Under the pieces are notes generated by a model. The model ran no database searches. It was given only the letters and a program-made list of their open reading frames with translations, and was not told the DNA's origin. From positions 273,694-337,693 of the forward strand of contig NZ_JAIRAU010000002.1 of NCBI RefSeq assembly GCF_020073745.1: a DNA stretch of 64,000 nt, given 5' to 3'. The number at the start of each line of letters is the position of its first letter. The first letter of the stretch is position 1. Shown here in pieces: positions 28,579-43,702 of this stretch. The position numbers and the translations under genes were made by a program. The stretch is from Nannocystis pusilla. Its GTDB lineage: Bacteria > Myxococcota_A > Polyangia > Nannocystales > Nannocystaceae.

Positions 28579-31500
28579 TCAGGTCCCGACGGGTTCGTGT
28601 CGGGCGCTGCCGTTGTACATGGCGCTCCACTGCGCGGGGCGGCGGATGGCCTGCGAGGCGAGGAACTGATCGGCCTGGGCGATCAGCTGGGCGCCGCCGG
28701 GGCCCATCAACTCGCCGCGGCGACGGCGGGCGCAGGCGGCGTGGATCCGCATGTCGGCGGTGTCGAAGCTGGCGGCGGCCGCCTCGAGGCGGACGAGCGC
28801 CTGCGGGATGTCGTTGTTCTGCGCGGCGATGCCGGCGCGGATCAGCGCGGCCATGGCGACCGAGTCGTAGCGCAGCGCGCGGTCCTCCTCGAGCTGGGCG
28901 GCGTCGCGTTCGGCGGCGGCGAGCAGGACGCCGGCGTTGTGCGGCTGCTCGCGCGCGGCCGCGATGGCGGCGAGGGCCCGCGCGTGGAGGAAGACGATCC
29001 GCTGGCCCTGCCAGCCGAGGATGTACGAGTTCTCGACGGCGACCCAGTTCTCGGCCAGTCGCTGCCACGCGGCGCCGCCTTGCCCCTGGTACAGGTCGCA
29101 GAAGGTCTCGAGCACGAGCGCGAGCATGTGCTGGAAGTGGAAGCCGTCGCGGGTCCAGCGGCGCATGGTGTTGCGGACGCGGTCGCGGGCGCTGTGGATG
29201 TCGTCGGCGCTGAGCAGCCCGTAGGCGCTGTAGAGCGACGACCAGACCTCGCCGCACAGGTCGCCGGTCTCCTCGGCCTCGCGCAGCCAGGCGTGGGCGC
29301 GGCCGCCGAGCTCGGCGAGCTCGCCGAGCATGTACAGCGCGCGCATCGAGCTCATGCGCGAGACGTCGAGCTCCCAGCCGACGCCGACGCAGCGGTCGAG
29401 GAGGATCTGGGCGCCTTGCTCGTTGCGCTCGAGCGCGCGCCGCCAGCGGCCGAGCGAGACGTCGGAGAGGCCGTCGATGATCTCGCACAGGCCGAGCAGG
29501 CGCGGGTCCGACAGCTGCTCGGCCAGCCGGCGCGCCTCCTTCAACAGGGTGGTGCCGCGGCCGACGGCGTTGGCGGTGCCGCGGCTGACGACCATCGCGC
29601 CGACGCCGGCGAGGGCGCGGGCGATCCGCTGCGGTTCACCTGTCTGAAGGGCCAGGAGCAGCCCGCGCTGGAAGAAGCTGTAGCCGCGGATCGGATCGAC
29701 GAAGGCGAGGCCGACGGCGGCCGACAGGCACACGTCGAGGCGCAGCAGGTCGGCCGGCGGGACCTGGTCCTCGCGCACGCTGACGAAGTTGAGCCCGCGC
29801 AGGCTGAGCTGGGTCGAACGTGTAATGATGGACATGTTCGCCCGGCCAGGTGTGGCGGGGTAGCCGAGGTCGACCTCGACCAGCGCGGGCCGCAGCAGCC
29901 GGATGCCCTGGTCGATGTTGCCGCTGACGAGGAACTGCTCGCCGGCGCGGCGGCGCAGCTCGAGCGACTCGGCCGGGGCGGCGCCCTCGGCCGCGCTGGC
30001 GTAGACGGGGGCGGCGGCGGCGCTGCGCCCGGCCTGGGCGAGCGCGTCGGCGCGGCGGCGCAGCAGGGCCCGGCGCTCGTCGTCGGGCAGATCGGAGGCC
30101 CACGCGAGGGCGCGCTCGTAGAGCTGGGCGGCGCGGTGGAACGCGAGCGCGGCCGCGGCCCGCTCGGCGGCGGCGACGGCGGCGGCGAAGGCCTCCTGGA
30201 GGGCGCCGGCGGCGTGCAGGTGATGCGCGAGCAGCTCGGGGTCGTCGGCGGACTGGGCGAGCGCGTCGGCGAGGGTGCGGTGCAGCCGAGCCAGGTGATC
30301 GGCGCCGAGCTGGGCCAGCACGGTGTCGCGGATCCGGTCGTGATAGCACTCGACCGTGTCGCCGCCGCGGGTGGCCAGCGTGCGCAGCAGGTGCTGCGCC
30401 TGCAGCTCGCCGAGGATGGAGCGATCGGTGACGCCCGAGGCGGAGAAGGCGAGGTTGGCGGGGATCGGCCGCCCGGCGACGGCGACGATCTCGAGCAGGC
30501 GACGACCCGCGGCGCGCAGGCCGGCGAGGCGCGTGCGCACGACGGCGTCGAGCGAGACCTCGGGCGGGGCGGCGCCGCGGTGACCGGCGACGTGACGCGC
30601 GAGCTCCTCGACGAACAGCGGGTTGCCGCCCGACTCGGCGGCGATCCGGCGCGCGTCGGCGCGGGTGCCGTCGGTGTCGCGGCCGAGGCGGGCCAGCGCG
30701 AGCTCCTCGGCCTGCTCGGCCGACAGCGGCTCGACCAGCAGATCGCGGACCAGCGCCTTGAGCTCGGGCCGCGCGCCGAGGCGCCGGAGCTCGCGCAGCA
30801 TCGGCGCGTCGTCCTCGTCGATCCGGTACGAGCCGATGAACAACAGCGCCGGCGGATCGGGCGGCGACAACAGCTCGGCCAACAGGCGCGCGCTGTCCTC
30901 GTCGCCCCACTGCAAGTCGGCGATCCGCAGGACCAGGGGGCGGCGATCGGCGATCCGCGCCAGCAGCTCCTTGAGCCCGCGGAAGGCCCGCCGCCGGGCC
31001 TCCTGCGGGTCGGGGGCGGCGAAGTTGCGCTGCGGCAGATCGGCGACCACGGCGGCGCGCGCGAGCACGGGGAACAGCCGGGTGAGCTCGTGGATCTCGC
31101 GCGGCAGCAGGGCCGCGGCCTCCTCGGCGGGCAGGTGCCGCAGGTGCTGCGCGAGCGCGTCGAGGACGCTGTCGAAGGCCTTGTACGGCACGCTCTCGCG
31201 CTCGAAGCAGCGGCCCTGGAGGACGAAGGCGCGGTCGGTGCGGCGCAGCTCGGCGATGAAGCGATCGATGAGGGCGGTCTTGCCGATGCCGGAGCGGCCG
31301 CGGACGTACACGCACACCGGCGAGCCGGCGAGCGCGAGCTGGAACGCGTCGCGCATGGCCGACAGGAGATCGTCGCGGCCGACGAAGCGGGCGCCGCTCT
31401 CGGCCGGGCCGAGCGGGGCCTCGCCGAGCGCCTCACGGATGTCGGCCCCGCCGAGCCGCGTCGCCGGGTCGCGCCGCAACAGGCCCATGCAAAGGGTCGA

Positions 31501-33444
31501 CAGCGCCGGATCGACGGCGGGCGCGAGCTGCTCCGGCGGGGCCGGATCGTCGTGCTGCTTGGCGTGGAGGATCAGCAGCGGCGGGCCGGTGAAGGGCAGG
31601 CGGCCGGTGAGCGCCTCGTAGAGCATGACGCCGACGGCGTACCAGTCGCTCGCGGGCGTGGCGGGGTTGCCGGCGGCCTGCTCCGGCGCCATCGTCGCCG
31701 GGGTGCCGAGCAGGCCGTCCTCGCCGCCCTCGGCGACGTCGTCGGCGGCGAGGCCGAAGTCGAGGATCGCGACGCGGCCCTCGGGCGTGACGAGCACGTT
31801 CGACGACTTGAGGTCGCGGTGCAGCTTGCCGGCGGCGTGCAGGGCGCTGACGCCGGCCGCCAGCTGCAGCAGGGCCGGCCGCAGCCGCTCGTGCAGCCGG
31901 CCGGCGTCGCGCGCGTCTGGCTCTTCGGACATGTCCTGACGGACATAATCGACGAAGCTGACGCCGTCGACGAACTCCATGGTGATGAACCACTCGTCGG
32001 CGTGCGAGACCAGCTGGTAGAGGCTGACGAGGTTGGGGTGCGACAGGCCGGCGGCGCTGCGGAACTCGTTCTTGAGGCGGAACAGCGCGCCGGGGTCGAG
32101 CTTGTGCAGGGTCTTGAGCGCGAGGGTGCGGCCGCTGTCGCGGTCGACGGCGGCGTAGACGACGCCCATGCTGCCCGAGCCGACCCGACGCACCAGCTCG
32201 TAGCGGCCGAGGGGACGCGGAAGGATGTCCTCAGGGACAGGTAGCGTCGCCGGCAGCGAAGCGCGGGCCTGGGGCTCGTCGGAGTTCAAGGGAGCGAGCG
32301 GATTATGCCACGCGGGCCGGCCCGCGGTCGCTTCGGCGGGCAGCGCCCCCGGCGGGACGCCGAGGCCGGGGCCGCGGGGCCGCGGCAGTTCGGGCGCGAG
32401 CCGGTCCTGGCTGCCCGGCGGCATGGGGTCGTCCAGCGTGAGCATGTGGGCGTCGAGGTCGGCCTCGTCGGCGAGACGGGACAGGGCGCTGGCGGCGGCG
32501 AGCCCGACGCGGGTCTCGATCATGCAGCCGAGGAGCACGCGCAGGCCCTCCCGCCGGGCCGCGGCGATCATCGCCAGCGCGGGCGAGATCCCGCCGCACT
32601 TCATCAACTTGATGTTGACGCCGGCGACGGCGCCCGCGAGGGCGATCACGTCGTCCGGCCCCTGCACGTCCTCGTCGGCGTAGATCGGGATGGGTGAGTC
32701 GCGCGCGAGCGCCGCGAGCAGGTCGGGCCGCCCCGCAGGCAGCGGCTGCTCGAGCTGCTCGACCCCGAGGTCGACCAGCAGGGGGATGAGCGCGCGGGCG
32801 TCCTCCGGGGTCCAGCCGCCGTTGGCGTCGACCCGCAGGCGGGCCCGCGGGGCCGCGGCCGCGACCGCACGCACCGCCGCGCGGTCGAACTCACGGGCGC
32901 GCCCGAGCTTGATCTTGAGCACCGGCAAGTGCGCGGCCGCGGCCGCCCGGGCGGCCATCGCCGGCAGCTCGTCGAGCGCGATCGTGTACGAGGTCACGGC
33001 CGCCCCCGATGTGGCCAAAAGGACATGACCGTCGACACCTGCCCGATCGAGCACGTCGGGGTCGGCCAGCCAGTCGGCGAGCGGCAGATCCCGGGCCCGC
33101 GCGGCGGCGTCCCACAGCGCGGTGTCGACGGCGCAGCGGGCCGCGGAGTGGGCCGGGGCGAGCTCGCGCATGCGCGCGCCAGCGGCCGTGATCGCGCGCG
33201 GGTCGCCGAGGATCGCCGGATCGAGCTCGGCGGCGATGGCGACGGCCAGCGGGGCCGCCGCCGGCGCCGACTGCCCGAGGTAGCGCACCGGGGCGGCCTC
33301 GCCGAGGCCGCGGCGCTCGCGACCGTCCGGCGATCCCGGGGGTTCGAGGCGCACCAGCAGGCTCGGCAGTTCGCTCACGGTCCCGCGCGACAGACCGAAC
33401 GGGTGGCGCAGGCGAAGCGTGACGAGGGCGGCGCGCAGGTCCAT
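28579..33444 (-). CDS. 1621-aa ORF: N-terminal enolase-superfamily dipeptide-epimerase-like domain fused in frame to a Ser/Thr protein kinase, AAA/NB-ARC-like ATPase and TPR region
   Basis: Epimerase motifs (KIKLG, DANGGW, EQP, YADE, KLMKCGG, C-terminal PGLGV) occupy about 33444-32346. The kinase G-loop [21 protein letters not shown] and APE come next. Then a Walker A GRSGIGKT and long helical repeats. No in-frame stop lies between the domains. Confidence 0.6.
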
Positions 33445-33493
33445 GGACTCCCCGGTGTACCACCGCCGAGGCGCCATTGTATCGTGACGGCGC

Positions 33494-35008
33494 ATGCCCA
33501 GTCGCCGCCCCGGAGGCTCGTCCCCCAGCGTCGCGCTCGATCGGCTGTTCGACCGCGATTCGCCGCTCTCGTACGAGGAGCGGCTCGAGGCCCTGATCTC
33601 GGCGGCGCTGCCCGACCAGGTGCCGCGGCTGTCGTTCGGCGCCGAGCTGGCCCGCGGCGGCATGGGCTCGGTGAGGCTCGCGTTCGACGAGGTGCTGCAG
33701 CGGCGGATGGCCGCCAAGACCATGCACGCGCGGACCTACGAGCACCTGATCCTCGTGCACGGGTTCCTGCGCGAGGCCCAGGTCACCGGCCAGCTCGACC
33801 ACCCCAACATCGTGCCGATCCACGAGCTCGGCCGCGACGAGCAGGGCCAGGTCTACTTCACGATGAAGCTGGTCGAGGGCCAGAGCCTGAAGGCCATGAT
33901 CGCCGGCGAGGCGGCGACCGACCACGAGCGCCTGGTCCACCGGCTCGAGATCTTCGTCAAGGTGTGCGACGCGCTGTCGTTCGCCCACAGCCGCGGGGTG
34001 ATCCACTGCGACCTCAAGTCGGCGAACGTGATGGTCGGCGCGTACGGCCAGGTCTACCTGATGGACTGGGGCGGGGCGCAGCTGCTGCCCCTTCGGCCAG
34101 GTGCCGACGAGAGCCAGTGGGTCCGCGACGCCCTGCCGCCGCTGCCGCCGTCGGAGACCGACGGGCTGGTGTTCGGCACGCCGTCGTACATGTCGCCGGA
34201 GCAGGCGATGAGCCATTCGCTCGACGAGCGCTCCGACGTGTTCTCGATGGGCGCGCTGCTGTACGAGGTGATGACCGGCAAGCCGCCCTACCAGGCCAAG
34301 ACGGCGATGGACGCGCTGCTACTGGCGCAGCAGGGCAACATCGCGCCGCCCGACTCGCACGTGGCGGTGCCGTTCCCGCGCGAGCTGGTCCGCATCGTCA
34401 TGAAGGCGCTGCGCCGCGACCCCGACGACCGCTACGCCAGCGTGGCGGCGCTCCAGCAGGACATCGTCCGCCTGCTGCGCGGCAGCGGCAGCTTCCAGAC
34501 GGTCCGCTTCGCCGCCGGCGACCACGTCATCCGCGAGGGCGAGATCGGCGACGCGGCCTACATCGTGCTGGGCGGCCGGCTCGAGGTCTACAAGCTCGAG
34601 GGCGGGCACCACGTGTCGCTGCGCTGGCTCGGGCCCGGCGACGTGTTCGGCGAGACTTCGATCTTCGCCGCGTCGCGCCGGACCGCCAGCGTGCTGGTGG
34701 TCGAGGAGGCGACGCTGACGAAGATCACCAGCGACCTGATCGAGGAGGAGCTGACGTCGATGAAGCCGTGGATGGGGGCGTTCGTGCGCACGCTCGCGGC
34801 CCGCTTCGCCGGCATCGAGAGCCGCAGCGCCAGGATGCCGCTGCTGGCCGATCGCCCGTCCGCGCCGCCCCCGCCGCGCAGCGCCCCGCCGAGCGCGGCG
34901 CCGACGTCGTCGGGCGGCGAGAGCGTGATCATCGACATCGACGAGCCGCTCGACGAGCAACACGCGGCCAGCGACACGCACGTGACGCTGCTGGCGCGCC
35001 GCGAGTGA
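33494..35008 (+). CDS. Ser/Thr protein kinase with C-terminal cyclic-nucleotide-binding domain
   Basis: Kinase motifs (GMGSVRLA, HCDLKSAN, DWG, SPEQ). cNMP-binding motif (FGETSIFAASRRTASVLVVEEATL). Confidence 0.85.
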   Translation: MPSRRPGGSSPSVALDRLFDRDSPLSYEERLEALISAALPDQVPRLSFGAELARGGMGSVRLAFDEVLQRRMAAKTMHARTYEHLILVHGFLREAQVTGQLDHPNIVPIHELGRDEQGQVYFTMKLVEGQSLKAMIAGEAATDHERLVHRLEIFVKVCDALSFAHSRGVIHCDLKSANVMVGAYGQVYLMDWGGAQLLPLRPGADESQWVRDALPPLPPSETDGLVFGTPSYMSPEQAMSHSLDERSDVFSMGALLYEVMTGKPPYQAKTAMDALLLAQQGNIAPPDSHVAVPFPRELVRIVMKALRRDPDDRYASVAALQQDIVRLLRGSGSFQTVRFAAGDHVIREGEIGDAAYIVLGGRLEVYKLEGGHHVSLRWLGPGDVFGETSIFAASRRTASVLVVEEATLTKITSDLIEEELTSMKPWMGAFVRTLAARFAGIESRSARMPLLADRPSAPPPPRSAPPSAAPTSSGGESVIIDIDEPLDEQHAASDTHVTLLARRE

Positions 35009-35077: not shown

Positions 35078-36304
35078 TCACGCCCGCAGCGGCAGGCCCT
35101 CGAGCAGCTCCGTGAGCGCGCGGGGCAGGGCGGTGAAGCGGACGACCACGCGGCCGGCGGTCGAGGCGACGACCTTGGCGTAGGCGTCGACGCCGGGCAG
35201 GGCGGCCAGCACGAGCTTGAGATCGGAGCGCAGGGGCACGACGGTCGTGACGTGCAGCTCGGCGTTGTGCAGGTCGTCGTACGCGACCAGCACGGCGGGG
35301 TTCTCCTGGCCGCCGGTGTCCTTGCCCTCGAGCGCGGTGAAGCTGAGCCGCTGCGGCTCGGCCAGGGCGCGCCACTGGGATGTCTCTTCGGCCATGTGAA
35401 TGGCGAACGGGCCGTCGACGCCGGTGACGTCGTGGATCGTGATCGGCTCGCGCACGCCCTTGGGCCGGACCTCGAAGCTGCCGCGGGTGCGCAGGCGGTC
35501 GCCGAGGGCCTCGGCGGCCGACCCGGAGATCAGGACCTGGCCGCCGACGGTGTAGCTCTCGATCCGCGAGGTGAGGTTGACGTGGCGGCCGACCACGCCG
35601 TACTTGGCGCGCCGGTTGGAGCCGATGTTGCCGACCACGACCTCGCCGGTGTGGACGCCGATGCCCATCTCGAGCGCGGGCAGGCCGTGCTCGGCCAGCT
35701 CGGCGTTGACGCGACCCATGGCCCGCTGCATGGCGATCGCGCAGGCGACCGCGCGCTCGGGGTGGTCCTCCTGCGGCACCGGGGCGCCGAACACGGCGAG
35801 GATGGCGTCGCCGATGAACTCGTTGATCGAGCCGCGGTACTCGCCGATGACGTCGGCCATGGCGCCGAGGTAGATGTTGAGGATCGCCACCACCTGCTCG
35901 GGGCCCAGCCCCTCGCACAGGGTCGAGAAGCCGCGCAGGTCGGAGATCAGGATCGTCAGCGTGCGCCGCTCGCCGCCGAGCTGGCGGCCCTCGGGCGAGG
36001 CCAGCAGGGTGTTGACGACCTCGTCGGTGACGTGGCGGCCGAACACCTGGCGGATGAAGGCGTTGCGCAGCTCGAGCTCGACCACCAGCGCCTCGACCTG
36101 CTCGATCTTGACGGCGAGCTGCTCCTCGATCTCGTTGGCGTGCTCGAGCGTGGAGTCGTGCAGCATCACGAGGTCGTCGTGCTCGGCCTGCAGCGCGGCG
36201 GCGGCGGCCACGAACTCGGCGCGCGCGGCCGCGTCGGCCAGGAGCGTGGCCGCGGCCTCGGGGTCGGCGAGCAGCTGCCGCCAGCGCGGGTCTTCCGGGA
36301 GCAT
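35078..36304 (-). CDS. Class III adenylate/guanylate cyclase (CHD domain) with N-terminal helical region
   Basis: CHD motifs TILISDLRGFSTL, FIGDAILAVFGAP and GIGVHTGEVVVGNIG. Confidence 0.85.
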   Translation of the reverse strand: MLPEDPRWRQLLADPEAAATLLADAAARAEFVAAAAALQAEHDDLVMLHDSTLEHANEIEEQLAVKIEQVEALVVELELRNAFIRQVFGRHVTDEVVNTLLASPEGRQLGGERRTLTILISDLRGFSTLCEGLGPEQVVAILNIYLGAMADVIGEYRGSINEFIGDAILAVFGAPVPQEDHPERAVACAIAMQRAMGRVNAELAEHGLPALEMGIGVHTGEVVVGNIGSNRRAKYGVVGRHVNLTSRIESYTVGGQVLISGSAAEALGDRLRTRGSFEVRPKGVREPITIHDVTGVDGPFAIHMAEETSQWRALAEPQRLSFTALEGKDTGGQENPAVLVAYDDLHNAELHVTTVVPLRSDLKLVLAALPGVDAYAKVVASTAGRVVVRFTALPRALTELLEGLPLRA

Positions 36305-36317
36305 GCGGGCGGCGCCG

Positions 36318-36692
36318 TCAATCGAGCGCGATGACGATGGGCGGCAGGAACTTCTTGAGGTTGGGCAGCGACTTGCCCTGCCACGGGATGGTCGACGAGC
36401 CGTGGACCTTGATCTCGGTGTCGCCCTTCTTGCGCGCGGCGATGGCGAACTTGTAGAGCATGTTGATGCCCGAGCTGTTGAGGAACGCCAGCTCGGTCAT
36501 GCGCAGGCCGAGCGCGGGGCTCTCGAGGAGGACGCGGTCGAGCATGTCCTCGATCGGCTTGTACTCGCTGGTGCTGAGGCGGAGGACGCCCTCGAAGTGG
36601 ATCGTGCGCGAGGGCGCGTCGAACCACACGCGATAGCCGGGGCCTTTGATGTCGGTGTCAGACCCGGAGGGTCGCGAAGTTGTATCCGTCAT
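36318..36692 (-). CDS. SiaC-like (DUF1987) partner-switch protein
   Basis: 124 aa. LAFLNSSGINMLYKFAI aligns with the SiaC core (LYLNTSSIKAMMDIL). 4-bp overlap with the upstream kinase gene. Confidence 0.6.
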   Translation of the reverse strand: MTDTTSRPSGSDTDIKGPGYRVWFDAPSRTIHFEGVLRLSTSEYKPIEDMLDRVLLESPALGLRMTELAFLNSSGINMLYKFAIAARKKGDTEIKVHGSSTIPWQGKSLPNLKKFLPPIVIALD

Positions 36693-37252
36693 GGGGATTT
36701 CACCTGTAGCCGGGCGGTGGTCTTGAGGAGCGCGTTGTCAGGATTGCCAGGCGCGGGGTCGAAGCGCCAGCCGAGCCGGGCCTTGTAGTCCGACAGCATG
36801 GTGAGAAATCCCAGGCCCGAGGTCGTCAGTTCGGGGTTGGCGGCGTTCTCCTCGACGCGCTGCATCAGGAGCTCCGCGGGATCGCCGTCGAGCAGCTCGG
36901 CGAACTTGACGCGCAGCCCGTCGACCGCGGCGCCGACGATCTGGTTGCTGACGACCACCACGAACTCGCCGGCCTCGACCCCGGCGTCGATCACGACGGT
37001 GCCGCCGGCGCAGAACTTGACCGCGTTCTCGATCAGCTCGTTGAGCACGTAGCCGACGCTGCCGACGAAGTCGCGCCGCTCGGCCTCCTCGACGAGCCCG
37101 CTGGCGCCGACGTCGGCGAAGTACTCGGCGAAGAAGTCGGCCGCCACGCTGCACTGGTTCCACTTCACCGGGAACGCCCCGGGGTAGAACACGAGCGTGA
37201 CGCGCGGTCCAGCGTCCGTGGGCTCCCTGTACTCGCCGATGATGCCGTCCAT
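36689..37252 (-). CDS. SiaB-like anti-sigma-factor-type GHKL Ser/Thr kinase
   Basis: N-box LNELIENAVKF, typical of the RsbW/SpoIIAB/SiaB kinase fold. 187 aa. GGAG RBS. Confidence 0.6.
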   Translation of the reverse strand: MDGIIGEYREPTDAGPRVTLVFYPGAFPVKWNQCSVAADFFAEYFADVGASGLVEEAERRDFVGSVGYVLNELIENAVKFCAGGTVVIDAGVEAGEFVVVVSNQIVGAAVDGLRVKFAELLDGDPAELLMQRVEENAANPELTTSGLGFLTMLSDYKARLGWRFDPAPGNPDNALLKTTARLQVKSP

Positions 37253-37275
37253 ACTCTCCGTCCGCCTCGGGCGCC

Positions 37276-39636
37276 TCAGCGCCGCTTGATCACCACCGTC
37301 GTGATGTCGTCGAAGACCTTCTGCGCGCCGATGAAGCGCATGACGTCGTCGATGATCGCCTGCTTGATCTCGGCCGCCGTCCGCTCGTGCACGCGGCGCA
37401 CCGCCTCGCACAGGCGCTCGATCCCGTACTGCTCGCCGTGGATGTCCTCCGCCTCGGTAATGCCGTCAGTGTACAGGACGACGACGTCGCCCGGCGACAG
37501 CCGCAGCTCGGTGTGGGCGATGAACGTGGCGATGTCGACCTCGAGCCCGACCGGCATGCCGAGGTCGACGGTGTCGATGCGCTCGATCGAGCCGCCCCGC
37601 CGCACGACCACGGCCTCCTCGTGCTGCCCCGTGAGGCGGAGCACCCCCTGCGAGTAGTCGAGCAGGACCAGGGTGGCGGTGCGGTCGAGACCGACGCGCT
37701 GGATGTTCTGGTAGAGGACCTTGTTGACGATGTTGAGGAAGCGCTCCGCGTCGCGCTCCTCCGCGGCCTGCAGGGTGCGCACCGCCGTCTGGATCATCAG
37801 CATCAAGACGCCGCTCTCGAGGCCGTGCCCGGTGACGTCGCCGATGCCGATCTTGACGCCGCCGGCGTGGCGCAGGACGTCGTAGTAGTCGCCGCCGACC
37901 TCGTCGGCCGGGCGCATGTAGCCGGCGACCTCGAGGCCGTCGAGCTCGGCCAGCTCGCGGTCGGGCGGCAGGACCATCAGCTGCAAGCGCCGGGCGACGT
38001 CGAGCTCGGCGCCGAGCCGCAGGTTCTCCTGCTTGAGCCGCTCGTTCAGCGCCATGATCTCGCGGCTGGCCCGCTGCAGCTCGGCGGTCCGCTGTTCGAC
38101 CAGGCTCTCGAGGTTGTGCGTATACGCGCGGATCTCCGCGGCCATCTGGTTGAAGGCGCGGCCGAGCGCGCCGAACTCGTCGCTGCTGCGCACGTCGACG
38201 CGCACGTCGTAGTCCTTCTGCGCGATCTTGCCGGCGCCGGCGGCGAGGTCGGACAGCGCGCTGGTCATGCGCCGCGAGACCAGGAAGATCCCGAGCATCA
38301 CCACCGCGAGCGCCACCAGCGTGATGACGATCTGGCTGGTGAGGATCCCGCGGCTGCTGGCGGCGATGGTGGCCTGGGCGTTGATCAGCGAGCTGTAGAT
38401 CTCGGCGGCCGGGACGACGAAGCCCAGCGTCCACCGCTCGGGCTTGATGTCGGCCGAGCCCGACCAGGCGTTGAACGGCTCGAGCCGCTTGAGCACGACG
38501 ACGTAGTCCTGGCCGCCGATCGCTACCGGGTCGCGGTAATCGACGGCGTCGCCGCTCGGCAGCGCGAGGGCGCGGATCGCCGGGTCGCGCGATTGATGGA
38601 GGAACTGCTGGAAGATGTCGACGCCGGCGCCCGACGAGCCGCTGATCTGCTGCAGGCCGAGGATGTCCTTGCCGTCGTCGTTGACGGCGAACACGTTGCC
38701 GTTCTCCTGGGCGAGGAAGGCGAAGCCCGAGCTGGCGAGCTGCAGGTCCTGGACGTGGCGGATCAATTGACTGAGCGTGACGTCGACGCCGACGGCCCCG
38801 GCGAACCGCGTGCGCGAGACGTCCCACAGCGGCTGGAACAGGGTCATGATGGCCCCGCTGCCGCCCGCGTCGGTGTACGGCGAGGTGCCGGTGACCTGCG
38901 CGGCGGGGTCGCGCATGCGCGCGGGGTCGCCGATCCAGCGCTGCCAGCCCTCGACGATGCCGGGGAAGTAGAAGCTCCAGAACGGGCTGGCGTTGTGCCC
39001 GGGGTACTGCTTGTCGGCGTGGCCGGCCGCGTCGGCCCACGGCGCGATCCGCAGGTACTCGGCGCCCGCGGGGCCGATGAAGTACATGGCCTGCTTCTCG
39101 GCCCCGTGCTGGAGGAGCGGCGGCAGCAGCAGGTCGAGCAGGGCGGTGCGCTCGACGGCGGCCCGGACCTCGGGCTTGATGTCCCGAAGGCCAGGTTTGT
39201 TCGGGTCGGCCGGGGCGTGCAGGTAGCCCCACACGGCGACCGCCGAGGGCTCGCCTTCAGCGGTCTGCGACCAGTCGCCGGCCGGGTCGTAGACCAGGGC
39301 GTCGCGCAGCGGCGAGGTCGTGGCTGCGGCGGCGGTCAGCGGCGCGAGCGCGTCCTGCTGGTCGATCAAGGTCTGGGCGACGGCCGCGAGCACGCCGAGC
39401 TCGGCGCGCGCGCGGCCGTGGTAGAACTCGACCCGCCGCGCGGTGTCCTCGATGTGATTGGTGAGGTACTCGCGACTGGCGCGCTCGAGGCCGTTGCGGA
39501 TCTCGTCGGAGGCGTCGCCGCCGAGCGAGCGGATGCCCTGCAGCGAGGCCAGCGCGGCGAGCGTCAGGCCGATCACCAGCCCGACCCCGGCGACGAGGAC
39601 GAACTTGGTGCGGAACCTGGAGCCCGTGATGGCCAT
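37276..39636 (-). CDS. Membrane sensor phosphatase with periplasmic domain, HAMP and PP2C (SpoIIE-like) domains; SiaA-like
   Basis: TM1 FVLVAGVGLVIGLTLAALASL. ~500-aa periplasmic region. TM2 IVITLVALAVVMLGIFLV. HAMP. PP2C motifs GDYYD, GDVTGHG and LYTDGITE. Confidence 0.8.
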   Translation of the reverse strand: MAITGSRFRTKFVLVAGVGLVIGLTLAALASLQGIRSLGGDASDEIRNGLERASREYLTNHIEDTARRVEFYHGRARAELGVLAAVAQTLIDQQDALAPLTAAAATTSPLRDALVYDPAGDWSQTAEGEPSAVAVWGYLHAPADPNKPGLRDIKPEVRAAVERTALLDLLLPPLLQHGAEKQAMYFIGPAGAEYLRIAPWADAAGHADKQYPGHNASPFWSFYFPGIVEGWQRWIGDPARMRDPAAQVTGTSPYTDAGGSGAIMTLFQPLWDVSRTRFAGAVGVDVTLSQLIRHVQDLQLASSGFAFLAQENGNVFAVNDDGKDILGLQQISGSSGAGVDIFQQFLHQSRDPAIRALALPSGDAVDYRDPVAIGGQDYVVVLKRLEPFNAWSGSADIKPERWTLGFVVPAAEIYSSLINAQATIAASSRGILTSQIVITLVALAVVMLGIFLVSRRMTSALSDLAAGAGKIAQKDYDVRVDVRSSDEFGALGRAFNQMAAEIRAYTHNLESLVEQRTAELQRASREIMALNERLKQENLRLGAELDVARRLQLMVLPPDRELAELDGLEVAGYMRPADEVGGDYYDVLRHAGGVKIGIGDVTGHGLESGVLMLMIQTAVRTLQAAEERDAERFLNIVNKVLYQNIQRVGLDRTATLVLLDYSQGVLRLTGQHEEAVVVRRGGSIERIDTVDLGMPVGLEVDIATFIAHTELRLSPGDVVVLYTDGITEAEDIHGEQYGIERLCEAVRRVHERTAAEIKQAIIDDVMRFIGAQKVFDDITTVVIKRR

Positions 39637-39644
39637 GCGCGGCG

Positions 39645-40817
39645 TCAACGCTCGGGTTTGCGGCCGGAGGCGACGTAGATCGGCCAGGTGGCGAAGCCGC
39701 GGCGGCTGCGGATCGCGTACACGTGATCGCGGAAGCCCATGCGCAGGCGCTCGACGACCTCGGGCGGCTGCTGCGTGGCCGCCGAGAGCTCGCCGGTGAC
39801 GTACTCCTCCCAGCTCTCGATCACCCGCGCGAAGTCGTCGATCGCGGTGTTGTTGTTGGTGATCGGGAGCTGCTCCATGCGCACGTCCTCGAGGCCCATG
39901 TCGGTGAGCTGCGAGAACATCTTCGGCCCGAAGTTCATGTCCATGCCGAGGCTCTGGGCGATCTTCACGGCCTGCTGGTACGTCCACGTGACCGACTCGT
40001 GGCGCGGGTAGCCGTAGTTGTGCGCGGTCATCTCGTTGGTCAGGTAGACCCGCCCGCCGGGTTTACAGATCCGCACCAGCTCGCGCAAGATGCTGGCCGG
40101 ATCGTTGAAGATCTGCAGCGCCAGGCGCGAGGTGACGAAGTCGAAGCTGTTCGACGGCAAGAACAGGTGGGTCGCGTCGCCGAACTGATACTCGATGTCG
40201 GTGATGCCGAACTCGCGGGCGATCTGCTGCGCGTATTGGAGGAACGGCCGCGAGTGATCGACGCCGACGATGTACTCGGGCTCGAACTCCTTGTAGACGA
40301 GCACCGCGAAGTCGCCGATCCCGCAGCAGATGTCGGCGATCCGCATGCGCTTGCCGAGGCCGTGGCGGCGCAGCAGCTCGCGCTCGTGCGACCACACGAT
40401 GTTAGTCTGGGTCCGCAGCACCGGCACCAGCTGATCGTTCTCGATCACGCCCTGGCCGGGGTAAAACGCCCTGTCGTACTGCTCGACGATGGTGTTGCCG
40501 AACTGCGCGCCGAGGAAGCCGAAGCGCAGCGGGGCCCACGGGACCACGCTCGAGACGACGAGCTTGAGCTTGAGCGCGGGGTGGCGCTGGGCGCAGGCGG
40601 CGATGAAGCGCGCGAGCTCGACGAAGCCGGTGTGGTTGAGGTAACGCAGGCGCTTGAAGTTGAGGTAGAGGACGCCGCGCACGGCGTCGGCGGCGTGGTC
40701 GAGGTGGGCGCGCACCGGCGCGAAGTCCTCGGGCCCGGCCGGGCGCAGCGACCCCGCGAGCGCGACCTCCTGGTCGTTCTCGTGGAAGCGGATCGAAAAC
40801 GGTTGCTCGTTCTCCAT
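39645..40817 (-). CDS. Fusion protein: N-terminal SiaC-like (DUF1987) domain plus C-terminal class I SAM-dependent methyltransferase
   Basis: N-terminal LYLNFKRLRYLNHTGFVELARFIAA (SiaC-like). MTase motif I ADICCGIGDFAV and post-I acidic residue. Confidence 0.7.
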   Translation of the reverse strand: MENEQPFSIRFHENDQEVALAGSLRPAGPEDFAPVRAHLDHAADAVRGVLYLNFKRLRYLNHTGFVELARFIAACAQRHPALKLKLVVSSVVPWAPLRFGFLGAQFGNTIVEQYDRAFYPGQGVIENDQLVPVLRTQTNIVWSHERELLRRHGLGKRMRIADICCGIGDFAVLVYKEFEPEYIVGVDHSRPFLQYAQQIAREFGITDIEYQFGDATHLFLPSNSFDFVTSRLALQIFNDPASILRELVRICKPGGRVYLTNEMTAHNYGYPRHESVTWTYQQAVKIAQSLGMDMNFGPKMFSQLTDMGLEDVRMEQLPITNNNTAIDDFARVIESWEEYVTGELSAATQQPPEVVERLRMGFRDHVYAIRSRRGFATWPIYVASGRKPER

Positions 40818-40829
40818 ACCCAGCTCGGC

Positions 40830-41336
40830 TCACTCATGCGGGACAGTAAGGACGATGACGCCGGCGCCGCCGGCCTCGCGGAGCCCGAGCTTGACGCCGT
40901 GCAGCGCGACCAGCTCGAGCAGGCCCGCCTCGGCCGGCGCGCGCGTGAGCATCGCCTGGAACTCGGCCTCGTAGCGCGCGCGCGCGTCCGGCTGCGAGAC
41001 CCGCCCGAGGTCGTCGCGCAGCCGGGCGGCCAGCGCCTCGTCGGCCGGCATCGTCAGCTCGGCGATGACGTGCTCGTCGGTGCGCCCGACCTCGACCACG
41101 ATCTCGCCGTCGCCCGGGCGAGCGCGGAAGACGTACTCGAGCACCTCGTTGAGATAGGTGGAGAGCCGCGTGGTCAGCTGCTCGGGGTCGAAGCGATCGG
41201 AGGCGACGAAGCGCGCGATGTAATCGGCCAGCCGCTGACAGTGGGTCCAGCTGTCGTAGAGCCCGCGGACGCTGATCCGGAGGGTGAGGATCGGGCTCGG
41301 ACCGGAGGGGGAGGGGGGCGCGGGTTCGGAGGTCAT
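40830..41336 (-). CDS. Second SiaB-like small kinase paralog (degenerate N-box)
   Basis: 168 aa. LNEVLEYVFRA sits in the N-box position. First gene of the six-gene minus-strand operon. Confidence 0.45.
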   Translation of the reverse strand: MTSEPAPPSPSGPSPILTLRISVRGLYDSWTHCQRLADYIARFVASDRFDPEQLTTRLSTYLNEVLEYVFRARPGDGEIVVEVGRTDEHVIAELTMPADEALAARLRDDLGRVSQPDARARYEAEFQAMLTRAPAEAGLLELVALHGVKLGLREAGGAGVIVLTVPHE

Positions 41337-41602
41337 GCCGGGGCCGGAGCGGGAGAGGGGCCGCAGGCGTACGCGCCCGGATCGGGGCACGATCGACGCC
41401 TGCAGCCACGGTATCACGAAGCCGGCGCAGGCGGCCGCAGGCCGCGGACGCGTGGCCGCAGCGGCGACGGCGGCGAGGGTCGAGTCCGCGCGCGGAGGTG
41501 CGCCGGCGCAGACGGCCCGGCGAGCGCGAAAAAAGCTCGCGGGCCTCGGGAACAAGCCCCAAAGCGGCGTGTCCGAGGCGCCACACGACCGGGGCAAGGA
41601 CG

Positions 41603-43702
41603 ATGACAACCACGAAGACGCTCGCCATCAAAGTGTTTTACGGCGATCAGCTCGTCGACACGCAGACGCTGACGCAAGACGTGATCAAGATCGGAAAACT
41701 CAAGAGTAGCCACGTCTGTTTGGATGACGAGGCCGTGGCCCGCATGCACGCCGTGATCGAGGTGTCCGGCGAAGAGGTGCGGGTGATCGATCTCGGGAGC
41801 GCCGCGGGGACCGTGCTGAACGGCCAGCGGATCGACAAGAACGCGGTGCTGCACGACGGCGACGCCCTGAACTTCGGGCCGTACCGGCTCGAGGTCGGCT
41901 TCTTGAAGCAGCAGGTCGCGGCCGCGCCGGCGCCGGCGCAGGTGGCGGCGCCGGTGGGGGTGGCGGCGGCCGTGGCGGCGGCGCCGGTGGCCGCGCCGAT
42001 GGCGACGCGCGCCCCGATCCAGATCGACCTCAGCGAGGTCGAGAATCAGAACGGCTCGCGGGTGGCCGAGGTCGTGGCGATGTACGGCACGACGGTGCTC
42101 GACGTGCAGCACGTCGGCCAGCTGAAGAACCGCAAGTCGCAGGCGCCGCTGTTCCTCGCCATCGGCGGGGTGATGCTGGTCGCCGGCGCGGCGGTGTTCT
42201 TCAGCGACGTGAACCAGGACTGGGCCGCCTACGGCAAGAAGGTCCAGGAGTCGATCGAGCAGGGCACGCCGCGGCCGACCCCGCCCGGAAACGGCCTGGC
42301 GGCGATCGGCATGCTGCTGGCGATCGCGGGCCTCGTGCCGTTCAGCATGGGCCTCATCCGCACCGGCGACTACGTCAACAAGAACTTCACGATCGGCGAG
42401 GGCCACGGGGCGTCGTTCCACGTGCCGCCGGCCGGTCTGCCGGAGCCCACCGGCTTCCCGCTGGTCCGCGGCAGCGACCACGAGTTCGCGCTCAACTTCA
42501 CGCAGAACATGAGCGGCGAGGTCACCTTCGACGGCCAGACGATCGCGCTGCAGCAGCTGGTCGCGACCGGTCGCGCGGGCTCGCAGGGCTCGTCGTACAG
42601 CTTCCCGCTGCCGCCCGGAGCGACCGCGCGGGTCAAGTACCAGGACGTCACCTTCTACGTGAACTCGGTCGCGCCGGGCGCGGTGATCAAGGGCGGCAGC
42701 GAGACCGACAAGCCGTTCTGGCTGTACAACGGTGCCTCGTTCGTCGTCATCGGCAGCCTGCTCGTGCTGACGCACCTCATCCCCAACGAGGCCGGCAACC
42801 TCAGCCTCGACGAGATGATGGAGGAGAACCGCTTCGTCGGTTACCTGAACCAGCCCGACAAGCCGCCGGAGGAGGAGGAGCCGCCGCCGGAGGACATGGA
42901 GAACTCCGACGACGAGGCCGGCGGCACCGGTCAGCGTCACAAGGGCGAGGAGGGCAAGATGGGCAAGCCCACCTCGAAGAACAAGTCCGGCCTCTACGCG
43001 ATGAAGGGCCCCAAGGACGCCATCCCGCAGATGGCCCGCAACTTCGACCCCGACATGGCCGCGCGCCAGGCCGGCATCCTCGGGGTCATGAGCGCCGAGA
43101 GCGGTCACTTCCTCGCCTCGCCGTACGGCGGCGCGTTCGCGGTCGGCAACGACGACGCGGACGTGTGGGGCGGCCTCACCGGCACGGAGATCGGTGAGGC
43201 GTACGGCGTCGGCGGCCTCGGCCTGGTCGGCACCGGCCGCGGCGGCGGTGGCACCGGCGAGGGCACGATCGGCCTCGGCAACACGGGTCTGATCGGCAAG
43301 GGCGGCGGCGGCGGCACGGGCTCCGGCTACGGCCGCGGCGCCGGCGCCGGCTTCGGCGGCCGCGGCACCCGCGTCCCCACGGTCCGTCAGGCCAAGGCCG
43401 AGGTCCAGGGCGCGCTCGACAAGGACATCATCCGCCGCATCGTCCGCGCCCACATCAACGAGGTCCGCTACTGCTACAACCAGGCCCTCGCGCGTGACCC
43501 CAACGCCAAGGGCCGCGTCGCCGTCCAGTTCACCATCGGCGGCACCGGCAAGGTGCCCACCGCGGTCGTCCAGGAGAGCACGATGAAGGACCCGGCCGTC
43601 GGCTCCTGCATCGCCCAGGCGGTCAAGCGCTGGACCTTCCCCAAGCCCGAAGGCGGCGGCTCGGTCATCGTCTCCTACCCGTTCGTCCTCGAGCCGGGCT
43701 GA
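41603..43702 (+). CDS. FHA-domain protein with TM segment, Gly-rich region and C-terminal AgmX/PglI-type domain
   Basis: N-terminal FHA (KIGKLKSSHVCLDDEAVARMHAVIEV...GTVLNGQRI). C-terminal RIVRAHINEVRYCYNQALARDPNAKGRVAVQFTIGGTGKV...SYPFVLEPG. Confidence 0.75.
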   Translation: MTTTKTLAIKVFYGDQLVDTQTLTQDVIKIGKLKSSHVCLDDEAVARMHAVIEVSGEEVRVIDLGSAAGTVLNGQRIDKNAVLHDGDALNFGPYRLEVGFLKQQVAAAPAPAQVAAPVGVAAAVAAAPVAAPMATRAPIQIDLSEVENQNGSRVAEVVAMYGTTVLDVQHVGQLKNRKSQAPLFLAIGGVMLVAGAAVFFSDVNQDWAAYGKKVQESIEQGTPRPTPPGNGLAAIGMLLAIAGLVPFSMGLIRTGDYVNKNFTIGEGHGASFHVPPAGLPEPTGFPLVRGSDHEFALNFTQNMSGEVTFDGQTIALQQLVATGRAGSQGSSYSFPLPPGATARVKYQDVTFYVNSVAPGAVIKGGSETDKPFWLYNGASFVVIGSLLVLTHLIPNEAGNLSLDEMMEENRFVGYLNQPDKPPEEEEPPPEDMENSDDEAGGTGQRHKGEEGKMGKPTSKNKSGLYAMKGPKDAIPQMARNFDPDMAARQAGILGVMSAESGHFLASPYGGAFAVGNDDADVWGGLTGTEIGEAYGVGGLGLVGTGRGGGGTGEGTIGLGNTGLIGKGGGGGTGSGYGRGAGAGFGGRGTRVPTVRQAKAEVQGALDKDIIRRIVRAHINEVRYCYNQALARDPNAKGRVAVQFTIGGTGKVPTAVVQESTMKDPAVGSCIAQAVKRWTFPKPEGGGSVIVSYPFVLEPG

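Follow-up and report, generated by a model that had tools for sequence, protein, structure and literature searches.

Partner switches have long been regarded as regulators of sigma factors. Described examples control diguanylate cyclases (the Sia, Hsb, and Bgr systems) and a glycosyltransferase, and in the Sia system the switch protein SiaC binds the stalk of the cyclase SiaD. In Synechocystis PCC 6803, slr1658 and slr1659 lie beside slr1657, which is listed as XXX-GGDEF; a knockout of slr1658 is reported to recover poorly from iron starvation and to up-regulate pgr5 ∼1000-fold. Here, we analyzed a 64,000-nucleotide stretch of the Nannocystis pusilla genome (hereafter, the window), in which a cluster of six minus-strand genes encodes a putative kinase (K1) and a switch protein (S1) of the slr1658 and slr1659 families, a membrane phosphatase, and a class III nucleotide cyclase, together with a second kinase/switch-like pair. 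We consider it probable that this locus is the Nannocystis member of a widespread slr1658/slr1659 (DUF6272/STAS-like) partner-switch family, in which the switch proteins would act on the cyclase through a short N-terminal helix, the EH motif. This motif, shared among output enzymes, and an adjoining gene for a kinase with a cyclic-nucleotide-binding domain go beyond the original prediction made for this DNA, which had proposed a SiaABCD-like operon with an adenylate cyclase as its output.

The genes present, their families and predicted folds, the conserved motifs, and patterns of co-occurrence were read directly from the window and its relatives. An open reading frame (ORF) map of the window confirmed all six predicted minus-strand genes at their coordinates. 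In minus-strand order, with S2 denoting the N-terminal domain and MT the methyltransferase of a fused gene, the features of the module are:

40830 to 41336, minus strand: K2, 168 amino acids (aa), a distant slr1658-type GHKL paralogue and predicted pseudokinase
39645 to 40817, minus strand: S2::MT, 390 aa, an slr1659-like STAS-type domain joined to a class I S-adenosylmethionine (SAM) methyltransferase
37276 to 39636, minus strand: membrane sensor phosphatase, 786 aa, with a transmembrane (TM) segment, a periplasmic dCache-like domain, a second TM segment, HAMP, coiled coil, and PP2C (SpoIIE)
36689 to 37252, minus strand: K1, 187 aa, a predicted anti-sigma-type GHKL Ser/Thr kinase of the slr1658 superfamily (DUF6272)
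36318 to 36692, minus strand: S1, 124 aa, a putative STAS/SiaC-like switch protein of the slr1659 superfamily
35078 to 36304, minus strand: soluble class III cyclase of Cya2 type, 408 aa, the candidate output enzyme
36107 to 36184, minus strand: EH motif (cyclase aa 41 to 66, EHDDLVMLHDSTLEHANEIEEQLAVK), an acidic helix and proposed docking site

From K2 to the cyclase gene, the intergenic distances are 12, 8, and 23 bp, a 4-bp overlap (K1/S1), and 13 bp, close to the gaps of 4 to 23 bp claimed before. GC content at third codon positions (GC3) is 0.88 to 0.96 and coding-like for five of the six ORFs in a GC3 screen from whose filtered list the K1 ORF (36689 to 37252) was absent; GC content of the window is ∼70%. 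The predicted layout was likewise borne out: the order is like that of siaA-siaB-siaC-siaD, and a class III cyclase stands where the Sia operon has its GGDEF gene.

The family of the two small proteins was assigned by hidden Markov models (HMMs). K1 scored 142.7 bits against the slr1658 superfamily and S1 scored 121.1 bits (E = 2.6e-35) against the slr1659 superfamily (NCBIfam NF047703 and NF047705, respectively); both scores exceed the curated threshold of 100 bits. In contrast, the Pfam model of DUF1987 matched neither S1 nor the N-terminal domain of the methyltransferase at E ≤ 0.1. HATPase_c_2 gave no Pfam HMM match, SiaB_fam (NF038262) reached 23.5 bits (E = 3.3e-5) against a cut-off of 85, and the SiaA model (NF038263) matched the phosphatase with 118.8 of the 700 bits that its cut-off demands, covering its HAMP and PP2C part only (aa 431 to 781). 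Because the Sia cut-offs were missed and those of slr1658/slr1659 were passed, the small proteins are members of the slr1658/slr1659 families and not of the SiaB/SiaC families. The original prediction had itself named a placement of S1 and the methyltransferase N-domain outside DUF1987/SiaC as evidence against its assignment, and this is where both of them fall. The components as such are already named in NCBIfam and Pfam and so are not unknown. S1 also scored 13.9 bits with Pfam STAS (PF01740), for which the gathering score is 22.6. Searches of the PDB with S1, by phmmer and by profile, returned noise only and did not retrieve SiaC; a direct PDB search with K1 likewise gave noise, its profile found only N-box similarity to histidine kinases, and a search for exact matches to S1 yielded nothing beyond one 682-bp metagenome contig.

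Structural matching of the predicted folds placed S1 nearest to SiaC/STAS antagonists and K1 nearest to RsbW/SiaB/SpoIIAB kinases, with SiaC and SiaB themselves ranking among the best matches. Together with the siaABCD gene order, the weak SiaB_fam match, and the partial SiaA match, this would fit a SiaABCD-family module with cyclic AMP (cAMP) output and a recently duplicated kinase/target pair, one target of which became fused to a methyltransferase. In view of the unmatched DUF1987, the widely missed SiaA, SiaB, and SiaC cut-offs, and the cyclase and paralogue data given below, we regard that reading as improbable.

Residues expected of a phosphorylation switch are strongly conserved. In the S1 family alignment (60% mean column identity across phyla), N72, S73, G75, I76, and N77 of the FLNSSGIN motif (window positions 36462 to 36485) are invariant, and S74 is nearly so. 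Profile alignments, for which the SiaC sequence was verified against the PDB, matched Ser73 to SiaC Thr68 (LN-T) and to SpoIIAA Ser58 (D-S). S1 thus combines a predicted SiaC-type fold with a phosphorylatable Ser after the conserved LN, and this conserved phospho-acceptor position supports the original interpretation. In K1, the predicted N-box LNELIENAVKF, including E72 and N76, and the G2-like SGLGFLT are invariant, and kinase activity is plausible. The phosphatase matched SpoIIE (PF07228; E = 6.8e-39, 134.2 bits against a cut-off of 25), HAMP (6.1e-14), and, below the cut-off, dCache_1 (2e-7), and its PP2C metal-binding motifs (GGDYYD, IGDVTGHG, YTDGITE, and FDDITTV) are intact. As judged by homology, a PP2C/kinase/phospho-STAS switch acting on Ser73 appears well supported. 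Apparent fusions of K1 to S1, in which DUF6272 and STAS occupy one polypeptide of 305 aa, were also seen (P0271 to P0278, e.g., in Chondromyces apiculatus).

The EH motif links the cyclase to this module. It is an acidic stretch of ∼26 residues near the N terminus (…DLxxLxxxxLEHxxxIExxL…), with 8 acidic residues and 1 basic residue, and the alignment shows His55, Glu60, and Leu63 (window cyclase numbering) to be invariant. The motif precedes the catalytic domain in module-adjacent cyclases of the CHD type (cyclase homology domain) and in extra PP2Cs, and is common to three CHD subtypes (E/G, K/T, and K/D) and PP2C in the loci. A motif HMM was run on all six-frame ORFs of 81 loci plus the window (82 sources with 1.3 Mb of flanking DNA). 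In ∼60 of these sources it recovered a single ORF apiece, at 46 to 70 bits, and nothing else up to E = 10; this ORF adjoins the module in every locus with an examined gene map, and in the 64 kb of the window the cyclase is the sole match. Chance adjacency of cyclase and module was rejected in view of how specific the motif is in this search.

When 1.84 billion database representatives were searched exhaustively with the motif profile, 81 hits were obtained. Domains on the full-length proteins were SpoIIE, Guanylate_cyc (one of them PAS-PAS-CHD), GGDEF, GGDEF-CHD, and HisKA-HATPase-REC, and cyanobacterial-type proteins carry tandem copies of the motif. A word-indexed search with a 45-residue motif alignment returned only eight short N-terminal fragments, which hold no information on attached domains, and the motif matched none of the PDB chains, including that of SiaD (presumably entry 7e6g). 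In a reciprocal look-up, K1-like and S1-like neighbors were sought in the contigs encoding motif proteins, and 5 of the 7 contexts that could be interpreted had adjoining module genes:

L084: slr1658, slr1659, and GGDEF genes in this order, both families confirmed by HMM
L085: slr1658, slr1659, and histidine kinase genes in this order, both families confirmed by HMM
L087: GGDEF gene with an slr1659 gene nearby, the slr1659 partner confirmed by HMM
L088, 6001 to 9382: GGDEF::K fusion, 114-aa gene, and SpoIIE gene, assigned to the module by the DUF6272 match of K and the presence of the 114-aa gene
L092: K, 113-aa gene, GGDEF, PAS histidine kinase, and REC-EAL genes, assigned to the module by the DUF6272 match of K and the presence of the 113-aa gene

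L088, a metagenome contig, shows a minimal three-gene version: the EH motif, GGDEF, and the K-like DUF6272 share one polypeptide, after which come the 114-aa gene and the gene of a SpoIIE phosphatase of 512 aa. On another contig (L086, 188 to 2338), a PAS-PAS-CHD cyclase with the motif (P0174) has two genes of the Npun_R2821/R2822 family upstream of it, and not K1/S1. Polyangiaceae extend the module with a soluble EH-motif::PP2C protein (L015, 8394 to 9886; Sorangium/Polyangium equivalents, e.g., L028, 8361 to 9392). L015 was the single locus scanned here; its motif-PP2C gene is followed by a third K-like gene of 168 aa, with weak matches to DUF6272 and slr1658_superfam, which completes a seven-gene cluster. 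The distribution of the motif suggests that it marks interchangeable output enzymes of the module in many bacteria, and we propose that the EH helix is a docking site for the switch proteins.

How docking might act is indicated by position. The EH motif stands directly upstream of the coiled coil and the cyclase transducer element, and the region before this element is where class III cyclases normally receive the input of sensor domains; binding to a helix so placed would therefore be expected to switch the cyclase. Because the motif is acidic, and S1 has a net charge of +2 and K1 one of −12, S1 is weakly favored as the binder of the EH helix. With the classical polarity of partner switches, K1 (and/or K2) would instead bind and inhibit the helix, and dephosphorylated S1 would sequester K1 and never touch the cyclase. 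This polarity is in keeping with the K1 fold, which is that of the anti-sigma kinases RsbW and SpoIIAB, direct binders of their output, with the K-like DUF6272 that P0162 carries on a motif-bearing GGDEF output polypeptide, and with the extra K-like gene directly after the motif-PP2C gene in Polyangiaceae. However, K1 is acidic like the motif, whereas S1 carries a small positive net charge and has invariant Arg/Lys; in the nearest structurally characterized system, SiaC and not SiaB binds the cyclase stalk; and apparent K1::S1 fusions occur as well. On balance, we hold the classical polarity to be a serious but unlikely alternative to binding by S1.

The cyclase matched Guanylate_cyc (PF00211) at E = 3.4e-26 (92.4 bits against a cut-off of 21.9), and Pfam GGDEF had no match in it. 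From its N terminus, it consists of the EH motif, the coiled coil, the transducer element (FGRH, aa 88 to 91), a catalytic core (aa ∼108 to 290), and a C-terminal extension, and both Cya2 and CyaB align at the metal-binding D122 and D166 and at the Asn/Arg pair (N243 and R247). Its top solved relatives are 2W01 (E = 2.6e-71, 244 bits), the Synechocystis guanylate cyclase Cya2, and 6FHT, a phytochrome fused to the E488K adenylate cyclase variant of Cya2. Over 200 residues, the window enzyme and Cya2 are 57.5% identical. The specificity positions are Glu162 and Gly236, an E-G pair as in Cya2, and the alignment places neither the Lys nor the Asp/Thr of adenylate cyclases there; 2W01 and 6FHT differ by E versus K exactly at the position of Glu162. 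E488K is reported to turn Cya2 into an adenylate cyclase. Because of the 57.5% identity and the shared Glu/Gly pair, cyclic GMP (cGMP) is a more likely product than cAMP, and the enzyme probably prefers GTP. The original designation as a CHD adenylate cyclase was right in class (class III) and is doubtful in substrate.

Two points would speak for a Sia-type module making cAMP. Module-adjacent CHD cyclases fall into E/G, D/G, K/T, and K/D subtypes across lineages, and the K/T and K/D pairs of other lineages are of adenylate type. In addition, a Tyr before the catalytic Arg of Cya2 is reported to enhance guanylate cyclase activity greatly, and this Tyr is absent from the window enzyme, so some adenylate cyclase activity is possible. 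Against this, Glu162/Gly236 are as in Cya2, where the Glu-to-Lys exchange is needed for adenylate cyclase activity. The C-terminal extension of the cyclase (aa 291 to 408, ∼118 aa; window positions 35078 to 35434, minus strand) has no Pfam match; it is conserved at 78 to 97% in close Nannocystis and at 30 to 38% in L050 and L008, and found no match in L053, L009, or L010.

Most of the module recurs far beyond Nannocystis. Scanning a genome collection with an S1 profile gave 462 loci, 80 of which were fetched, and gene order was determined in these by tblastn with the six window proteins. A five-gene core, K2–S2::MT–PP2C–K1–S1, kept its gene order in 60 of these 80, and most of the remaining loci were cut by contig ends. 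The core was found in Myxococcota (Nannocystis, Polyangium, Sorangium, Chondromyces, and Byssovorax) as well as in Alphaproteobacteria, Desulfobacterota, and Verrucomicrobiota, its other hosts including Mesorhizobium, Rhizobium, Parvibaculum, Acetobacteraceae, Desulfobacteraceae, and Chthoniobacteraceae. The cyclase gene lies downstream of S1 in Nannocystis and is upstream, divergent, or convergent in other lineages. A CHASE2 cyclase adjoining the core in L056 lacks the EH motif and was not counted as an output. In three divergent Nannocystis metagenome-assembled genomes (MAGs; L008 to L010), the order is K2–S2::MT–K1–S1–cyclase, with no membrane PP2C gene between those of the methyltransferase and K1 and a PP2C-like gene upstream on the opposite strand.

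Within the core, K2 and S2 appear to have lost what K1 and S1 retain. K2 matched slr1658_superfam at 34.7 bits (E = 1.1e-8) and S2 (aa ∼5 to 94) matched slr1659_superfam at 44.3 bits (1.8e-11), both below the cut-off of 100; S1 and the methyltransferase N terminus, which both match slr1659_superfam, are paralogous. The degenerate K2 N-box, LNEVLEYVFR (window positions 41124 to 41153), was present as predicted and has Tyr at the position of the Mg-binding Asn, which is replaced by Y, L, A, V, F, T, or I in every lineage aligned. The phospho-acceptor position of S2 is His (YLNHTGF), and H, F, N, S, or V follows LN across lineages. The class I SAM methyltransferase domain (aa ∼128 to 270 of the 390-aa protein, SAM motif IADICCGIGDF) matched Methyltransf_11 at 1.4e-18 (aa 160 to 260), so that this domain, too, was found by HMM as foreseen, along with Guanylate_cyc, SpoIIE, and HAMP. 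Wherever S2 and the methyltransferase were both detected, their tblastn matches were contiguous, consistent with one fused gene; of the proposed SiaC-like methyltransferase fusion, the fusion stood and the DUF1987 membership did not. We predict that K2–S2::MT is a conserved pair of a pseudokinase and a nonphosphorylatable STAS::methyltransferase.

Because this pair accompanies the core in several phyla and shares only 25 to 30% identity with K1/S1, the duplication that gave rise to K2/S2 appears ancient, not local or recent. The cross-phylum conservation already implies that K2/S2 lie outside the Nannocystis K1/S1 clade. A local duplication of the kinase/target pair, as first proposed and as the Sia-type reading entails, does not agree with a pair that is always fused and degenerate in a cross-phylum core.

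The presence of S2::MT in the core of 60 of 80 loci, beside a cyclase that varies in position and type and some loci without a motif-bearing output nearby (∼19), could also mean that the methyltransferase is the real conserved output and the cyclase a lineage-specific neighbor, independent or loosely coupled. On the other hand, the EH motif of the cyclase is shared by module-adjacent enzymes and occurs nowhere else in the 1.3 Mb of flanking DNA, cyanobacterial-type contigs encode K1-S1-output triads without any methyltransferase, and catalytic and acceptor residues are retained in K1/S1 and not in K2/S2. We think it quite improbable that the cyclase is such a bystander, and continue with the cyclase as output of the switch.

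A candidate reader of its product is encoded next to it. The protein encoded at 33494 to 35008 on the plus strand matched Pkinase (2e-37) and cNMP_binding (5.6e-17), and its cNMP domain carries the phosphate-binding cassette FGETSIFAASRRTASV. The gene stands beside the cyclase gene in 9 of 9 Nannocystis loci, at 62 to 97% protein identity, and a role as receiver is plausible because it is kept there in all nine; the protein is a likely receiver and candidate cGMP/cAMP-dependent kinase. Pycsar anti-phage systems also pair a PycC cyclase with a cNMP-binding effector (TM or TIR) in one operon, typically in variable defense islands. A Pycsar-like pair lying merely beside a signaling operon might be considered, since the cyclase matches PADLOC PycC models (best 4e-28, 96.6 bits) and the neighbor has a cNMP-binding domain along with a kinase domain that matches PD-T4-6 models. 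These PADLOC matches are generic and at the domain level, the Cya2 match being far stronger (244 bits); the would-be effector is an opposite-strand Ser/Thr kinase and not a TM or TIR protein of the operon; the cyclase carries the module-specific motif; and the locus is syntenic over six named Nannocystis species and distant MAGs, unlike a variable island. A defense pair is therefore extremely unlikely.

From these data, we infer the binding events, the phosphorylation events, and the nucleotide product as follows. The membrane dCache-HAMP-PP2C protein would sense a periplasmic ligand and then dephosphorylate S1 at Ser73, and K1 would use ATP to phosphorylate S1 again. The phosphorylation state of S1 would set which partner occupies the EH helix, and occupancy of the helix would turn the cyclase dimer on or off. 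We favor binding of unphosphorylated S1 to the helix, like that of SiaC to the SiaD stalk, with binding of K1 as the main variant. The Cya2-like cyclase would most likely make cGMP, and the adjoining cNMP-binding Ser/Thr kinase would read the signal. K2 and S2::MT, as a catalytically dead pair of the ancestral core, would probably provide a second output, the methyltransferase, which they would tether or gate.

Several observations weigh against this scheme. In our reading of the alignment, K1 has Asn103 where the Asp of the G1 box is expected. Ser246 occupies the position of the activity-boosting Cya2 Tyr, and the orthologues in two MAGs (L050 and L053) have Asp instead of Glu at the specificity position; because of these substitutions, the product is uncertain. 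In ∼19 loci, the core is present with no motif-bearing neighbor within 8 kb, and in two contigs with motif proteins (L086 and L094) no K or S neighbor was found within the contig DNA at hand. The P0162 fusion (motif-GGDEF-DUF6272), in which the output is joined to a K1-like domain, suits binding by K equally well. The role given to K2/S2 in tethering or gating the methyltransferase is a speculative guess. Finally, the evidence found for the family in the literature is genetic, namely, the slr1658 knockout phenotype, which is reported with "no details known about the signalling chain."

More tentatively, and with somewhat less than even confidence, we suggest that the slr1658/slr1659 pair may be the core of a widespread, undescribed class of partner switches. 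A portable EH helix would have been grafted onto cyclases (at least three cAMP/cGMP subtypes), diguanylate cyclases, PP2C, and hybrid histidine kinases, and Nannocystis would possess a complete cGMP pathway, from the periplasmic sensor through the Ser73 switch and the Cya2-like guanylate cyclase to a kinase that binds cGMP, parallel to a pseudokinase-tethered methyltransferase output.

The surroundings of the operon comprise the following features:

33494 to 35008, plus strand: Ser/Thr kinase with cNMP-binding domain, convergent with the cyclase gene, the candidate receiver
41337 to 41497, no strand: region separating the divergent K2 and FHA genes, presumably the operon promoter region, going by the ORF map
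41498 to 43702, plus strand: FHA-domain gene, 734 aa, divergent from K2

The operon is thus flanked on the opposite strand both upstream (FHA gene) and downstream (kinase gene). Consensus scans, which are uninformative at 70% GC, detected neither terminator-like sites on the operon strand between the genes nor sigma-70-type promoter-like sites, including in 41337 to 41497, and no sigma factor gene is encoded near the module. The nearest genome locus, that of N. radixulma, has all six genes at 97 to 100% protein identity, and the whole locus is syntenic in the six named Nannocystis species and in more distant MAGs. The FHA protein is kept at 92 to 98% identity in six close Nannocystis genomes. 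Phospho-Thr is the ligand of FHA domains, and a functional link between this protein and the module is conceivable. Farther downstream, a minus-strand ORF of 1714 aa (28579 to 33723) combines MR_MLE_N and MR_MLE_C (enolase superfamily) with a Ser/Thr protein kinase and an AAA_16 (STAND-type) ATPase, an unusual architecture.

The locus and its relatives suggest a plug-and-play logic, in which one kinase/STAS-like/PP2C core, found from Myxococcota to cyanobacteria, would serve various enzymes through a short docking motif. Since slr1657, a GGDEF protein, adjoins slr1658, this provides a molecular hypothesis for the slr1658 phenotype in Synechocystis; from cyanobacterial-type contigs with the K1-S1-output layout, an EH motif is expected in slr1657. 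The motif could predict the outputs of orphan modules and serve as an engineering handle. In the Nannocystis locus, moreover, a candidate for a regulated bacterial guanylate cyclase lies near a candidate cGMP receptor, and a conserved pair of a pseudokinase and a pseudo-STAS::methyltransferase has been identified. To our knowledge, bacterial cGMP signaling is poorly documented. A literature search for DUF6272 returned no papers, full-text searches found no description of a partner switch that controls a class III cyclase, and no account of the core of five genes, of K2/S2::MT as a dead pair, of the portable motif, or of a Cya2-type cyclase output came to light in the literature.

Compared with the SiaABCD system of Pseudomonas aeruginosa, the window shares the order of phosphatase, kinase, switch protein, and nucleotide cyclase, a membrane HAMP-PP2C protein, a SiaC/STAS fold whose acceptor residue likewise follows LN (LN-[T/S]), and an RsbW/SiaB-type GHKL kinase fold, both folds being predicted for the window proteins. 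In both systems the output has an N-terminal helical stalk, which in SiaD is where SiaC binds. In contrast to SiaABCD, the window proteins reach no Sia HMM cut-off, the output is a class III CHD enzyme and not a GGDEF enzyme, and the operon has an extra pair of pseudokinase and STAS::methyltransferase and a dCache-like periplasmic sensor. HsbA-HsbD of P. aeruginosa, BgrU/W/V-BgrR of Sinorhizobium meliloti, RsbU/V/W, and SpoIIE/AA/AB resemble the module as predicted here in combining a PP2C with an anti-sigma-type kinase and a STAS protein that can be phosphorylated. The STAS-based diguanylate cyclase switches resemble the proposed mechanism also in that an enzyme, and not a sigma factor, is controlled by protein-protein interaction; they differ from the window, where S1 is below the Pfam STAS score, no sigma factor is nearby, and the output is a cAMP/cGMP-type cyclase.

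Cya2 (2W01) has in common with the window enzyme the catalytic domain at 57.5% identity, the Glu/Gly pair, the metal Asp, the Asn/Arg pair, the FGR[HY] transducer element, and the presence of a C-terminal extension. It is a CHASE2 membrane receptor cyclase, whereas the window enzyme is soluble, has the EH motif instead, and bears Ser246 in place of the Cya2 Tyr. The slr1657-slr1658-slr1659 locus is alike in that K1 and S1 pass its superfamily cut-offs, in that the pair adjoins a nucleotide cyclase, and in the order of K1, S1, and motif-bearing output seen in cyanobacterial-type contigs. In contrast, the cyclase of the window is of CHD and not of GGDEF type and bears a single EH motif in place of the cyanobacterial-type tandem, and the operon contains K2–S2::MT and a membrane PP2C.

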